Shown: positions 1-3,393 of the stretch, piece by piece
Position numbering within the stretch: position 1 is the first letter of the stretch
Layout: each line of letters begins with the position of its first letter
Virus record (IMG/VR): IMGVR_UViG_2778261204_000004
Length of the DNA stretch: 4,313 nucleotides
Strand: one strand, 5' to 3'
Source: a virus
Lineage: Duplodnaviria; Heunggongvirae; Uroviricota; Caudoviricetes
Notes under the pieces: generated by a model
Databases searched by the model: none
What the model was told of the DNA's origin: nothing
Seen by the model: the letters and a program-made list of their open reading frames with translations, nothing else
Made by a program: the position numbers and the translations under genes

Positions 1-96
1 GACTTCACTGAGAACTGCGCCGATTTTGGTTTCAAATACGCCGCCGTCCAGCTCCCCGATAAATGCCTGCACATCAGTACTGCGTTCGCTAGCCAT
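1..96 (-). CDS. Hypothetical protein, N-terminal 32 codons only; gene continues past the left window edge. Sits at the head of the leftward operon (the position N occupies in lambda), but the visible N-terminus is not arginine-rich and I do not recognise the family.
   Basis: Reverse complement of 1-96 reads ATG GCT AGC GAA CGC ... = MASERSTDVQAFIGELDGGVFETKIGAVLSEV with no stop to the window edge. A strong SD (GAGGAG, complement of ~103-108) lies 6-7 nt upstream of the ATG at 96-94. Absent from the ORF track because it is truncated. Confidence 0.5.
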   Translation of the reverse strand, partial: MASERSTDVQAFIGELDGGVFETKIGAVLSEV

Positions 97-144
97 TTTG
101 CTGCTCCTCATCATATCGACCCTGCAAGGTCGGTTGGTTTCTCC

Positions 145-233
145 ACAAAACAGAGAAGAACACCTGCGGTGGCAGCCGCCCGGGTGGATTGGGTTATGAG
201 CCCGTCGTCCGGTGATGCTCTTCTCTGTTTTGT
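145..233 (-). other. Long imperfect stem-loop (15-bp perfect stem 145-159 / 219-233, plus 4 bp 161-164 / 211-214, GC-rich structured interior). Candidate cis-regulatory RNA element in the leader of the leftward gene; strand not certain.
   Basis: acaaaacagagaaga (145-159) is the exact reverse complement of tcttctctgttttgt (219-233); cacc (161-164) pairs with ggtg (211-214). The interior 165-210 contains further short GC stems such as gcgg..ccgc. No convincing ORF covers it. Confidence 0.3.
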
Positions 234-279
234 AAAAAGAGCGGTACCAGCCGGAAGCAAGTGTACAAACTGGTACCGC
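231..279 (-). terminator. Candidate Rho-independent terminator for leftward transcription: 10-bp perfect stem followed on the minus strand by a U-tract.
   Basis: gcggtaccag (241-250) and ctggtaccgc (270-279) are perfect reverse complements with a 19-nt loop. On the minus strand the hairpin is followed directly by TCTTTTTACA (complement of 231-240). There is no T-tract after it on the plus strand. Confidence 0.45.
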
Positions 280-691
280 CAAAGCAGTGGCTGTTGTGGT
301 GGGGTTGTCACTTAAGCGTATGGTCAACCTGACAACCCGGTGCCACTAATGGGGTAAGGATAACCCCGCCATACTTACCGCCGCGCCATTTCGCGGATTA
401 CCACAACGCTGAGAGCACTTAGCCAGTTATGGCACCACACTTTGTCGCGGCTCCATAAATGCCCTCATCGTTGCACCCTGGTCTCTTCCCAGGCGTCAAA
501 CCGAATCGCCACGCTGGTTAGGCGTCTTATCAGCATCATCATTGACTTGCACATTCCGGCTACCTGGTTTGTTTGCCCGAGCAAGGAGTGGATTGTCCCC
601 TTTAACGTCCCCAGACCGCTAACGACGCATGTGCCATACGCCGTGTTACAACCAACCTTTCGTTAACAACAGTCTGTTGTTTGTTCAGATA

Positions 692-735
692 ATAATGCTA
701 CTAAAAGTAGCAAAAATCAACAACAAAAAGTAGAA
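692..735 (-). promoter_or_regulatory. OL/PL-like module: leftward sigma70-like promoter (-35 TTGATT at 720-715, -10 CATTAT at 697-692, minus strand) with a 15-bp palindromic operator-like site (gctactaaaagtagc, 697-711) in the spacer, and a second AAGTAG half-site 23 bp away (728-733).
   Basis: The minus-strand 17-bp spacer tttgctacttttagtag is 15/17 identical to the spacer of the PR-like promoter at 3081-3097 (tttgctattttaagtag). Both are flanked by TTGnnn and CAT(C/T)AT hexamers. The palindrome has perfect 6-bp arms, gctact / agtagc. Confidence 0.45.
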
Positions 736-1008: not shown

Positions 1009-2094
1009 TTACAGACACTTGACTACTGTTGAAACATCAGATTCTAGTGCTTCAATTTGTGCTCTATTAGCTTGGGTCGCCATACCATAGATAGTGTAAC
1101 TCTTATGCTGCAGCCTACTTAAAGGGCATCCCTCATGGTTTATTATTGCTGCAAGAGTATTACCATCTTTGACATTTTGAACCCTCTCGAAAGTAGCCAC
1201 ATTTGTGAACAGATGAGGATGTGTATTTAACAGGTCATCAGTGATTCTTTTGATCTCTTCTGCATGTGATTTGAATGCTTTTGCTGCATCACTTTCATTA
1301 GTTCTTGAGCGGTTTTGTACGAAAAGGTGTAGTTCAGGTAGTTCGATAAGGTTTTGCTTTGCTTCTTTGTTGAAATCTAAGAACATTTCATCTTGTTCTG
1401 ACTTGTCAATAGACACTCCATAAATAAGTTTAACAAGGTTTTTTATTCCGCGAATTGATGCAGCATCGGCAGTGCAAGGGATAATTATTCTATTTGCCGC
1501 GACTACTCCCAATTCTGTGTAGCTGGCAAAACTTGGATTACAATCAATAAAAAATGTTTTTGCTCTGTCAGAAATGTTTTTATCGGCTTCAAAAGATGCT
1601 ATTAGATCTACCAGCAAAGATCGGCTTTTCTTCCATGCTTCTTTTACTGGGGATGAGCCAATGTGAGATATTAAGCGTGAACAGATATCAAGATCGACAT
1701 CACCAGGAAGAATATATAAGTTCTCTGGCATTTTTGCATTAACGTCATGGGCCCGTACAAAGTAAGAAGATTCATTTCCTAAACGAGACAAAGGAGATTT
1801 GCTAAAACGTTCCTTGATATAACCTGCGATTGTAACATTTCTGTCTCGCAATTTATTTAGATTTTCTTCCCCGGTACCATTGCCACCAAGAATAATTTCT
1901 GAAACGTTTGATTGAGGGCATGAGTCAATAACCACAACATCTTGATCCGGATGAGATATAGCAAACTCAACGGCAAGATTATATGTAAGAAAAGTTTTTC
2001 CTACACCACCTTTGTTGTTCCATACTAAATATTTTGTATTGGTGGAAATCATATCTGCTACCCCATCTGTCGCTTCAGTACGTTCATTAATCAT
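1009..2094 (-). CDS. ParA/MinD-superfamily P-loop ATPase (deviant Walker A), 361 aa, standalone. No ParB-like partner or centromere-like repeat array is visible.
   Basis: Deviant Walker A KGGVGKT (nt 1993-2013, residues 28-34); A-prime-like VVIDSCPQSN; Walker-B-like hydrophobic run ending in Asp (TFFIDCNPS). SD AGGA sits ~7 nt upstream of the ATG at 2094. An internal Met (2052) would give a more typical ParA N-terminus, so the start is slightly uncertain. There is a C-terminal extension of roughly 80-100 aa beyond a typical ParA core. Confidence 0.85.
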   Translation of the reverse strand: MINERTEATDGVADMISTNTKYLVWNNKGGVGKTFLTYNLAVEFAISHPDQDVVVIDSCPQSNVSEIILGGNGTGEENLNKLRDRNVTIAGYIKERFSKSPLSRLGNESSYFVRAHDVNAKMPENLYILPGDVDLDICSRLISHIGSSPVKEAWKKSRSLLVDLIASFEADKNISDRAKTFFIDCNPSFASYTELGVVAANRIIIPCTADAASIRGIKNLVKLIYGVSIDKSEQDEMFLDFNKEAKQNLIELPELHLFVQNRSRTNESDAAKAFKSHAEEIKRITDDLLNTHPHLFTNVATFERVQNVKDGNTLAAIINHEGCPLSRLQHKSYTIYGMATQANRAQIEALESDVSTVVKCL

Positions 2095-2318: not shown

Positions 2319-3059
2319 TTAAAGTCGATTATATTTAATCGACTCATGAATCAGTGCCTTACCCATAACATAAAGCTGATCTTGCGACTTCTCATCAATG
2401 TACCATTTCTCATAGGCGGGGTTATCCGAAAGAACAGCTAGTTTGTTGCCTTGCATTTGTAGACGTTTAACATGGAAAGTCTTACCGTAAACGAAAGAGT
2501 AAACTCCATCAGTCTGGAAGTGGCGAACGGAAATGTCGACAAACAATCGATCCCCGGAAACAAGAGTTGGGGACATACTATCTCCATTTACCGTCATAAC
2601 TTTTATATCATTCTGAGAACGGTTTCCGAAAAGAGAACGGGCATGTTCAGTTGTGAACTCAATGGCGTAGAGCACATCAACATAGTCTGAAAGCATATAG
2701 GTCCCAGGTCCTGCGCTAACGCTAAGATCCAAAACTTCTATCCTGTATACATCGGGCTTTGTTGGATTGGGGATGCTTGCCATTTCCTTACATTCCTCTC
2801 TATCTCCAACACCATATTCTAGATATGAAGCTGATACCCCAAGAGCCAACGCAAGTTTACTCATGACAGAGACACGTGGCTTCGCTGCGCCGATTGTGTA
2901 TCGACGAGCCATTTCATATGTAACGCCCACAAGACTTTTGAGTTGAGTGACAGAGATTCCTTTGATTGTCATCAATTCGTTTAGTCTCTTGGCGAAATCT
3001 GGATACTTCTGTTCTTCTACCATAGGTAGAAGATTACTCACATCACACGCGCTAGTCAT
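2319..3059 (-). CDS. Phage cI-like repressor: N-terminal XRE/Cro-CI type HTH plus C-terminal S24 (LexA/UmuD-like) self-cleaving peptidase domain.
   Basis: HTH-like segment FAKRLNELMTIKGISVTQLKSLVGVTYEMARRY. S24 catalytic dyad context: nucleophile Ser in VNGDSMSPTL and the general-base Lys in HVKRLQ. Divergent from a Cro-like gene. The track ORF begins at TTG 3080; I prefer the in-frame ATG at 3059 (protein MTSACD...), so the start is uncertain and the transcript may be leaderless. Confidence 0.88.
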   Translation of the reverse strand: MTSACDVSNLLPMVEEQKYPDFAKRLNELMTIKGISVTQLKSLVGVTYEMARRYTIGAAKPRVSVMSKLALALGVSASYLEYGVGDREECKEMASIPNPTKPDVYRIEVLDLSVSAGPGTYMLSDYVDVLYAIEFTTEHARSLFGNRSQNDIKVMTVNGDSMSPTLVSGDRLFVDISVRHFQTDGVYSFVYGKTFHVKRLQMQGNKLAVLSDNPAYEKWYIDEKSQDQLYVMGKALIHESIKYNRL

Positions 3060-3129
3060 TTCTATTTTAAGTAGTTGCAATTTGCTATTTTAAGTAGCAT
3101 CATCCCTCTGAATTTCAGAGGAGAAAGGC
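3060..3129. promoter_or_regulatory. OR-like divergent control region: two 13-bp direct repeats ctattttaagtag (3062-3074 and 3085-3097, spaced 23 bp) with partial dyad symmetry. PR-like promoter for the Cro-like gene: -35 TTGCAA 3075-3080, -10 CATCAT 3098-3103. Strong SD GGAG(A) at ~3119-3124.
   Basis: Repeats read directly from the sequence. The second repeat sits in the 17-bp spacer of the PR-like promoter, mirroring the arrangement at 692-720. On the minus strand a TAAAAT -10-like hexamer sits 4 nt upstream of the cI ATG, consistent with a leaderless PRM-like transcript. Confidence 0.6.
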
Positions 3130-3393
3130 ATGTCATCTCAAAACTACACAGAGAAAGCAGTAAAGGCTGCGGGAAAATCTTTATCTGAAGTAGCCCGTCG
3201 CTTTGGTTTTAAGTCCACTCAATCCGTCGCTAATTGGGTAATTAACAATCAAGTCCCGTCAGAACGGGTTTTACAACTTTGTGAGTTGGGAAACTGGTCC
3301 GTGACCCCTCATGAACTGCGTCCTGATATTTACCCCAATCCAAATGATGGATTACCTGAGTGCTATTCAAAAGTTAGCGGTTCAGCTGCGTAA
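3130..3393 (+). CDS. Cro-like small HTH DNA-binding protein (YdaS/Cro-type), 87 aa.
   Basis: Divergent from the repressor, with a strong SD. HTH-like segment SLSEVARRFGFKSTQSVANWV and a C-terminal ELRPDIYP motif that I recall from YdaS-type Cro proteins of Rac-like prophages. Recognition is from memory, not a search. Confidence 0.8.
   Translation: MSSQNYTEKAVKAAGKSLSEVARRFGFKSTQSVANWVINNQVPSERVLQLCELGNWSVTPHELRPDIYPNPNDGLPECYSKVSGSAA

Follow-up and report, generated by a model that had tools for sequence, protein, structure and literature searches.

A chain of putative RNA cassettes, among them a DicF-family small RNA variant, in the PL leader of a lambdoid prophage

The small RNA (sRNA) DicF, encoded in the dicBF operon of the lambdoid prophage Qin, has no internal promoter and occurs as a 190-nucleotide (nt) species with a 5' end made by RNase III and as a 53-nt species with a 5' end made by RNase E (bioRxiv 10.1101/2023.04.14.536235). 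In a 72-nt form of DicF, the extended 3' end is made by RNase III from read-through transcripts; the 5' seed of the sRNA is that for xylR, and a 3' segment pairs with the ribosome-binding sites of ftsZ and pykA (PMC5069750). Here, we analysed the untranslated leader of the leftward early promoter PL in a 4,313-nt stretch of DNA from a tailed phage (IMG/VR record IMGVR_UViG_2778261204_000004; the whole stretch is called the window below). The presence of structured non-coding regulatory RNA in this leader is supported by conservation, by covariation and by homology to the DicF precursor, which has been characterised experimentally. An earlier note on this DNA had named a prophage-encoded sRNA as one of two readings of the region, and it is the homology to the DicF precursor that supports that reading. 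In the order of transcription, we refer to the parts of the leader as module C, module B, the sRNA and module A (Table 1). We estimate the probability that the leader RNA is processed in the manner of DicF at roughly 60%.

The earlier note had described five stems in front of the first leftward gene as a single element and had assigned them to no strand. All five stems are present where it had placed them and each folds on the minus strand, which is the sense of the leftward PL transcript; they do not belong to one element, but to three separately mobile minus-strand modules. The first stem (145-233) is the outer stem of a 100-nt element, module A (141-240, minus strand, -47.3 kcal/mol, z = -6.69, with none of 200 shuffles as good). 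The second (241-279) is a 13-base-pair (bp) hairpin followed by CUUUUU at 239-234 (-21.2 kcal/mol, z = -5.35). This hairpin had been taken for a terminator that the polymerase has to read through (231-279), and turned out to be the terminator of the sRNA itself. The remaining three stems (302-338, 351-367 and 381-396) are the arms of one four-way junction, module B (290-409, -47.3 kcal/mol, z = -1.90, 11 of 200 shuffles as good). Distant BLAST searches against phages showed that pieces of the leader occur separately in unrelated phages: positions 133-239 were found alone in ST64B, 97-281 in SfV and SfII, 285-407 in many prophages, 401-644 in phiV10-type Uetakeviruses directly 5' of tRNA-Arg, and 480-655 in P1 and P7 between trnI and ban. 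Judged by these matches, the leader strings together RNA cassettes, each of which turns up independently in other phages.

Module B links the leader to DicF. Positions 285-407 of the window are 86% identical to Qin (L011 3985-4107), namely to the ~120 nt that lie directly upstream of DicF. The module B match in E. coli B is located in Qin between ydfC and dicB and ends ~10 nt upstream of the DicF sequence scored by Rfam (72.5 bits; the gathering score is 48 bits). Megablast detected positions 301-407 in 4813 of 5426 complete E. coli genomes. Phage P1 has module B as well (76% identity), in the annotated 'dicF-like region' just after Pban, and there a different terminated hairpin follows it. 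In each of 89 distinct sequences retrieved by a module B word, a short RNA with a variable 5' part, a GC hairpin and a U-tail comes after the module.

Covariation was judged against controls in which the partners were slid along the alignment and against 500 shuffles that ignore phylogeny. Run on modules A and B, the covariation analysis suggested in the earlier note found stems that are conserved with compensatory changes in both. For module B (15 representatives), 94.7% of the alignment cells were paired, compared with 35-62% for slid partners, and six pairs showed compensatory changes. The conserved G.U pairs of this module work on the minus strand only, and these pairs together with the U-tail identify the minus strand as the RNA strand. 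SfV and ST64B contain a slot bounded by the same GUUGUGG...CCACAAC strands, which is filled by an STnc100-like domain (39.5 and 35.1 bits, respectively, under the Rfam gathering score of 47 bits for STnc100). Because they occupy the same slot between the same flanking strands, module B and the STnc100-like domain appear to be interchangeable cassettes. The STnc100 covariance model gave no match in the window. In ST64B (L359 2380-2690, minus strand), the PL leader is ~815 nt long; its STnc100-like cassette and module A are preceded by another hairpin RNA with a terminator, CUGGCGGCCC...GCCAGCUUUUU, and by a region with GUAGCCG, possibly a distant variant of module C.

The sRNA that follows module B is identical to DicF at 41 of 53 aligned positions and at 16 of 17 positions of the core UUUGGCGGUACCAGUUU; the core shared with DicF reads UUUGGCGGUA(U/C)CAGUUU. 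It does not have the ~18 nt that form the 5' end of DicF, and the loop and the 3' arm of the hairpin differ. AgvB, AsxR and the Pas sRNAs were also considered as relatives and rejected, as they occupy other prophage positions and the core sequences are not found in the Pas supplement.

Counting 190 nt back from the 3' end of DicF in Qin leads into a long imperfect stem (z = -3.87), to a position that precedes module B by ~6 nt. The window has an equivalent stem at 403-474. Based on this length arithmetic and on the equivalent stem, the sequence comparison identifies module B plus the sRNA (409 to 234, ~175-180 nt) as the structural counterpart of the 190-nt DicF of Qin. By analogy, the 403-474 stem is a candidate RNase III site that would make the 5' end of a long sRNA species.

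DicF-type processing of the PL leader RNA would proceed as follows. When the repressor leaves the operator OL, PL transcription would run through modules C and B, and a large share of the transcripts would terminate at the U-tract 234-238. Cleavage of the 403-474 stem by RNase III would produce the long species of ~175-180 nt, and cleavage by RNase E between module B and the hairpin would produce a short Hfq-type sRNA of ~50-60 nt, which would pair with host mRNAs via a seed other than that of DicF. Read-through transcripts would fold module A, whose 20-23-bp stem would be a further RNase III substrate and the analogue of the cut that gives rise to the 72-nt DicF. Cleavage within module A would separate the sRNA from the mRNA of the yfdP-like first gene, remodel the 5' untranslated region (UTR) of this mRNA and free the apical tRNA-like domain.

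Several points weigh against DicF-type processing. The processing sites are placed by analogy with DicF only, and efficient termination at 234-238 would require a read-through mechanism for the downstream early genes, of which none was identified. The Rfam DicF model gave no match at positions 100-700 (601 nt) even at E ≤ 10, compared with the 72.5 bits that it reaches on Qin. The sRNA lacks both the 5' seed of DicF and the CUCCG segment directed against ftsZ. The predicted duplex of the sRNA with ftsZ (-32.0 kcal/mol) is not better than those of shuffled sequences (mean -33.5 kcal/mol) in a prediction that discriminates poorly even for DicF itself; ftsZ was rejected as a target on the grounds that the duplex does not exceed the shuffles. 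Module B is weak when judged by its fold energy alone (z = -1.9). Finally, homologues were gathered by exact-word scans (at least 120 loci), so that the invariance of the scanned words is partly a product of this retrieval, and many of the sequences are close relatives.

Table 1. Positions of the leader RNA elements and of the surrounding genes and signals in the window
Feature	Position	Strand	Description
Module C	403-648 (core 475-648)	-	First element of the PL leader, outside 145-400; covarying 5' hairpin and two predicted pseudoknots
Stem C3	403-474	-	Long imperfect stem that closes module C and adjoins module B; -34.3 kcal/mol, z = -4.14
Module B	290-409	-	Four-way junction closed by 400-409/290-300; arms 381-396, 351-367 and 302-338
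DicF-family sRNA variant	234-289	-	Single-stranded 281-289, terminator hairpin 268-280/240-252, U-tract 234-238
Module A	142-236	-	Three-way junction; outer stem 214-236 with 142-164; z = -6.69
Initiator-tRNA-like hairpin	186-206	-	GAC-GGG-CUCAUAA-CCC-AAUCC; arm of the module A junction
Variable second hairpin	166-179	-	GCGG-CUGCCA-CCGC; arm of the three-way junction
Conserved 6-bp hairpin	117-132	-	UGCA loop; between module A and the ribosome-binding site; -8.5 kcal/mol, z = -2.45
First gene (YfdP-like), 5' part	1-109	-	Shine-Dalgarno GAGGAG 109-104 and AUG 96-94, read from the sequence
PL promoter	692-720	-	-35 TTGATT 720-715, -10 CATTAT 697-692, read from the sequence
OL operator palindrome	712-696	-	TGCTACTTTTAGTAGCA; between the PL hexamers
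ParA/AAA_31 ATPase gene	1009-2094	-	rexAB-like slot; terminator at 973-954
S24 cI-like repressor	2319-3080	-	
cro	3130-3393	+	

Module A stands apart as a widely conserved three-way junction with a long stem, placed right in front of the ribosome-binding site of the first gene. Its outer stem consists of 20 bp, extended up to 23 bp by pairing of the U-tract of the sRNA with a conserved GGAG. Across 24 representatives, 94.6% of the alignment cells were paired, compared with 36-48% for slid partners, and the covariation score of 0.155 (0.079 in the control) was reached by none of the 500 shuffles. Eight pairs showed double changes, for example from CAGAG/CUCUG to CACAC/GUGUG. A scan by the loop word detected module A at at least 120 IMG/VR loci, and a scan with one genome per species found the full architecture in 20 or so species of Enterobacterales, including members of Citrobacter, Enterobacter, Kosakonia, Mixta, Erwinia and Leclercia. 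Module A is present in 2514 of the 5426 complete E. coli genomes (46%). It had no Rfam match in the scan of the window, and full-text literature searches with the core sequences of modules A, B and C and of the sRNA returned no relevant paper.

The second hairpin of the junction is the variable part of module A, with a segment length of 13-38 nt among homologues and compensatory changes from GC to AU and from GC to CG at the stem base. On the 3' side of module A, a conserved GGAGAAAC segment is followed by the 6-bp hairpin, a Shine-Dalgarno sequence and the AUG of whichever gene comes first. Homologues of the 6-bp hairpin differ in the stem (GGCGGU/GCCGCC, GCCCU/GGGGC) and keep a (U/G)GCA loop. 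At two loci (L297 and L367), module A lies directly after a PL promoter/operator that is near-identical to that of the window, and no sRNA separates the two.

One arm of the junction resembles a part of the initiator tRNA, tRNA-fMet. Over 14 nt, the longest common substring, the segment CGGGCUCAUAACCC (204-191) exactly matches the anticodon stem-loop of E. coli tRNA-fMet, and the identity covers three G-C pairs and the CUCAUAA loop. Three consecutive G-C pairs beside a CAU loop are the hallmark of initiator tRNAs. The tRNA-fMet reference is present at 100% identity, annotated as tRNA-Met, in 5426 of 5426 genomes with a median of four copies. The exact 13-mer occurs in 32 of the 37 loci that were retrieved via module C, a set in which the loop was not selected on, and U-CAU-A is retained in the variants. 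Likeness to the tRNA is limited to the 3 bp and the loop, and the next two pairs of the tRNA are replaced by a conserved asymmetric internal loop. There is no cloverleaf: Aragorn found no tRNA in the window or in 31 related genome loci, and Rfam gave no tRNA match in the window. No Rfam family was found for the motif, and literature searches found no paper on it.

The 21-nt motif also occurs in other contexts, where the sequence of its closing stem differs and still pairs (alignment A8: five of six pairs compensatory, score 0.454 compared with 0.199, reached by none of the 500 shuffles). It was detected between Q antiterminator genes, which belong to two Pfam families, and holin/endolysin genes in Raoultella, Pantoea and 17 IMG/VR contigs. 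In these late-operon leaders, the initiator-tRNA-like motif, GACGGGCUCAUAACCCAAUCC, was observed together with a hairpin having a AUUCCUAA loop (L376 3038-3055, L390 4926-4943 and L393-L410). Furthermore, the 21-nt motif forms the tip of a long 5'-UTR hairpin in front of a Shine-Dalgarno sequence and AUG in an Acidobacteriaceae metagenome-assembled genome (MAG)/virus (L375, L395 5967-5985 and L405) and is therefore not confined to Enterobacterales. Matches to the 18-mer outside Enterobacterales are mostly due to chance (~17 expected); the view that all of them are was rejected for the Acidobacteriaceae locus, which has the full stem architecture. A gammaproteobacterial MAG (L385 3660-3730) contains an apparent tRNA-fMet gene from which the variable and T-arm region is deleted, so that the anticodon arm is fused to AAUCC and the 3' strand of the acceptor; Aragorn does not call it.

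We tentatively propose, at odds well below even, that the apical junction of module A represents an RNA domain of phages that stands on its own and moves horizontally, with a business end that copies the anticodon stem-loop of the initiator tRNA, and that it is placed at the start of two big antitermination-controlled transcripts, in the PL and the PR'-type leaders, even in an Acidobacteriaceae virus. A functional mimic of the tRNA-fMet anticodon stem-loop, which the long stem only presents or releases, would add to DicF-type processing and appears doubtful. The 30S P site and methionyl-tRNA synthetase (MetRS) read this stem-loop. Possible roles of such a mimic would be those of a decoy or competitive substrate for VapC/PIN toxins that specifically cleave tRNA-fMet, of a ligand of the 30S P site or of initiation factor 3 (IF3) that alters initiation, or of a MetRS binder. 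The 14-nt exact identity with its three G-C pairs and CUCAUAA loop speaks for mimicry, as does the conservation of the loop in lineages that were not selected for it. A universal partner would fit the finding of the motif, closed by a covarying stem, both in late leaders between Q and holin genes and in the Acidobacteriaceae virus. VapC homologues of distant bacteria target the anticodon stem-loop of tRNA-fMet, which also favours this idea (PMC8522696). However, the resemblance ends after 3 bp and a loop without a cloverleaf, and the loop of ST64B is CUCAUUA. In addition, tRNA-fMet is abundant and a decoy would therefore need very high expression, and the chance that such a window shares a 14-mer with some tRNA was estimated at ~0.1 before structure is considered. 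Pairing of the CUCAUAA loop with the start-codon region of the downstream genes was rejected, because only the AUG is common to them. If the mimicry were functional, module A would represent a new class of phage leader RNA, directed at the translation-initiation machinery or acting against a host defence. In any case, the exact copy of the initiator-tRNA stem-loop provides a testable handle on phage contact with translation initiation or with tRNA-targeting toxins.

The lambda N leader carries an RNase III-sensitive hairpin, and by analogy RNase III might plausibly exert control at the long duplex of module A. Module A and the UGCA hairpin might thus form a cis-acting switch of translation or stability of the first gene, in which RNase III processing or a ligand controls access to the ribosome-binding site as in the lambda N-leader hairpin, and to which the upstream sRNA is incidental. 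The position of module A is in line with this explanation, as it always lies directly 5' of a Shine-Dalgarno sequence and AUG, also where it comes right after the promoter (L297 and L367) and in Acidobacteriaceae, and the GGAGAAAC segment and the hairpin between module A and the ribosome-binding site are conserved. On the other hand, the downstream genes vary among phages, so that there is no common protein to feed back on, and the folds show no alternative pairing that sequesters the Shine-Dalgarno sequence. The apical domain is also found ~110 nt from holin starts, that is, in a different frame of reference. Taken together, we consider a cis-acting switch unlikely to account for the leader.

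Module C is the first part of the leader to be transcribed. It contains an invariant 19-mer, GGUAGCCGGAAUGUGCAAG, at 565-547, and its predicted pseudoknots join a GCAC loop to GUGC and a (C/A)ACC loop to GGU(G/U), the latter with covariation. In an alignment of 21 representatives (A5), 95.4% of the cells were paired, compared with 25-44% for slid partners; ten pairs were compensatory, and the score of 0.253 (0.113 in the control) was reached by none of the 500 shuffles. Module C was found at at least 120 IMG/VR loci and in 1376 of the 5426 E. coli genomes (25%) and has no Rfam match. Elsewhere, phiV10 and SPN1S have it 5' of tRNA-Arg, and P1 has it between trnI and ban. Should the leader contain an RNA-based device for read-through, module C would be the best candidate, since no other conserved element lies between PL and the first terminator. 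The locations of module C in P1 and phiV10 speak against a simple put-like role.

The first of the two readings in the earlier note, antitermination by a nut- or put-like element, was not supported. A covariance model of the two HK022 sequences putL and putR recovers both (97.6 and 87.5 bits) and has no match at E ≤ 10 either in the window or in related leaders, and a BLAST search with putL yielded 9-nt words only. The boxA consensus occurs at chance level (three matches compared with 3.35 expected), and its sole match in the leader is the 3' end of the terminator itself. The leader is followed by no N-like gene, as the first gene is YfdP-like and does not encode an arginine-rich N protein. 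A protein-independent processive antiterminator of the put type, formed by the whole region or by module C and allowing read-through of the 234-238 terminator into the early genes, is quite improbable. It would suit a leader that lies exactly in the position of putL/nutL, lacks an N-like gene, and has an intrinsic terminator between PL and the first gene as well as a compact, highly conserved module C that is predicted to be pseudoknotted and is transcribed first; the tRNA-like motif is, moreover, also found right after PR'-type late promoters. Beside the negative model and BLAST results, several arrangements speak against it. Because the modules within 145-400 are located at the terminator or downstream of it, they cannot act on it. 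Module C of P1 is downstream of the dicF-like terminator and that of phiV10 precedes a tRNA, SfV has terminators but no module C, and the motif-bearing late leaders have Q already.

The earlier note had seen no convincing open reading frame (ORF) in the leader, and the homologues agree with this: no frame is open in more than 52 of 103, which is the count for the best one, and the insertions and deletions are not multiples of three, leaving insert lengths out of phase with codons. None of the ORFs in the leader has a Pfam match. An Rfam scan of the window at E ≤ 1 gave zero matches, and one of positions 100-700 at E ≤ 10 gave chance-level microRNA and ribozyme matches only. Related loci yielded only tRNAs, C4, isrK and STnc100 below threshold, so that the Rfam scans gave no known unrelated element with which the region could be identified. 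Barely credible, finally, is the idea that the region is protein-coding (through the minus-strand ORF 111-311 or annotated plus-strand ORFs, in line with the hypothetical proteins that some GenBank/RefSeq records annotate across the leader RNAs) or a DNA element such as a recombination hotspot or miniature inverted-repeat transposable element, which the mosaic modules moving between phages might suggest, since the ORF would cross the terminator and the compensatory changes and strand-specific G.U pairs indicate selection on the RNA.

The window represents the immunity region of a lambdoid prophage of the SfV/cdtI/mEp460 type. Its positions 97-700 are 100% identical to E. coli C311 (NZ_CP062204.1, 4762009-4762612), and cdtI, Ayreon and Stx2c phages are ~97% identical to this stretch only until ~655-665, where immunity-specific DNA starts; for phages with another immunity type, homology ends at ~665. 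An AT-rich block lies 3' of the ParA/AAA_31 gene and gives way to a GC-rich stretch that extends down to the AUG at 96. The contrast in composition described in the earlier note is borne out by a G+C content of 0.54-0.55 at positions 100-600, compared with 0.28-0.35 at 600-900. The same note had placed a PL-like promoter at ~692-720, which is plausible: both hexamers are present, and a second copy of the operator TGCTACTTTTAGTAGCA is found at OR (3083-3099; 0.01 chance matches expected). The assignment of PL is reasonable because the operator recurs at OR and sits between TTGATT and CATTAT. With a start near 685, as inferred from the promoter, the leader would extend from ~685 to 97 and comprise roughly 590 untranslated nt. 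Homologues of the first gene are annotated as hypothetical protein or protein YfdP and are followed by YfdQ-family and 5'-nucleotidase genes; a full-length homologue of the first gene had no Pfam family.

Two in-frame AUGs (114-112 and 111-109) precede the AUG at 96; the annotation of Ayreon uses the upstream one and that of cdtI uses 96. A start at AUG 96 is favoured because of the Shine-Dalgarno sequence GAGGAG at 109-104. The ParA/AAA_31 ATPase (361 amino acids, G+C content 36-39%) is encoded between cI and PL, where lambda has rexAB, is absent from cdtI, mEp460 and Ayreon, and may be a moron or defence gene expressed in lysogeny. The early-right operon of mEp460 (L002 5771-5959) contains isrK (67 bits) and the C4 antisense RNA (83.6 bits) in tandem, a P1-like antirepressor-control module.

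These results suggest that DicF is one member of a modular family and that the domain of its 190-nt precursor is a conserved four-way junction, which many temperate phages, P1 among them, would combine with sRNA "warheads" of different kinds. Modules A and C are conserved RNAs that have no Rfam family and for which our searches found no paper, and they are present in 46% and 25%, respectively, of the complete E. coli genomes.

Among known systems, putL and putR of HK022 resemble the leader described here as promoter-proximal structured RNAs in the early leaders of a lambdoid phage without N. They differ from it in that put comprises ~70 nt with two stem-loops, whereas the modules within 145-400 are positioned at the first terminator or beyond it. 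In the nutL/N leader of lambda, likewise transcribed from PL, the ribosome-binding site of the first gene is also closely preceded by a long duplex; in contrast, the leader in the window has no boxA/boxB or N gene, is far larger and consists of several modules. The thrS operator is a mimic of a tRNA anticodon arm in an mRNA leader. Module A shares with it a leader hairpin that copies an anticodon stem-loop, but here the initiator tRNA is copied instead of the tRNA of a synthetase encoded downstream, and no cognate protein gene is linked. The short PR' leader RNAs StxS and lambda 6S are comparable in that the motif is also present in promoter-proximal late transcripts, where RNAs of the StxS type arise.

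The STnc100/PasD sRNAs (RF02076) have, like module B with its sRNA, a multi-branched 5' domain closed by a long stem, followed by a single-stranded segment and a terminator, and an STnc100-like domain fills the exact slot of module B in SfV and ST64B; the sequence and fold of module B are different from those of STnc100. DicF and its 190-nt precursor (RF00039) differ in location, since DicF sits after ydfABC in Qin whereas the sRNA described here sits in an untranslated leader, and in what comes next, which is an STnc100-like domain and dicB in Qin and module A in the window. The xylR seed and the CUCCG segment for ftsZ are missing here, and the Rfam model failed. Common to both are the repressor-controlled early operon of a lambdoid prophage, a homologous upstream domain of 120 nt (86%), the shared core and an intrinsic terminator with a U-tail, and both are flanked by long stems of the kind that RNase III cuts in Qin.

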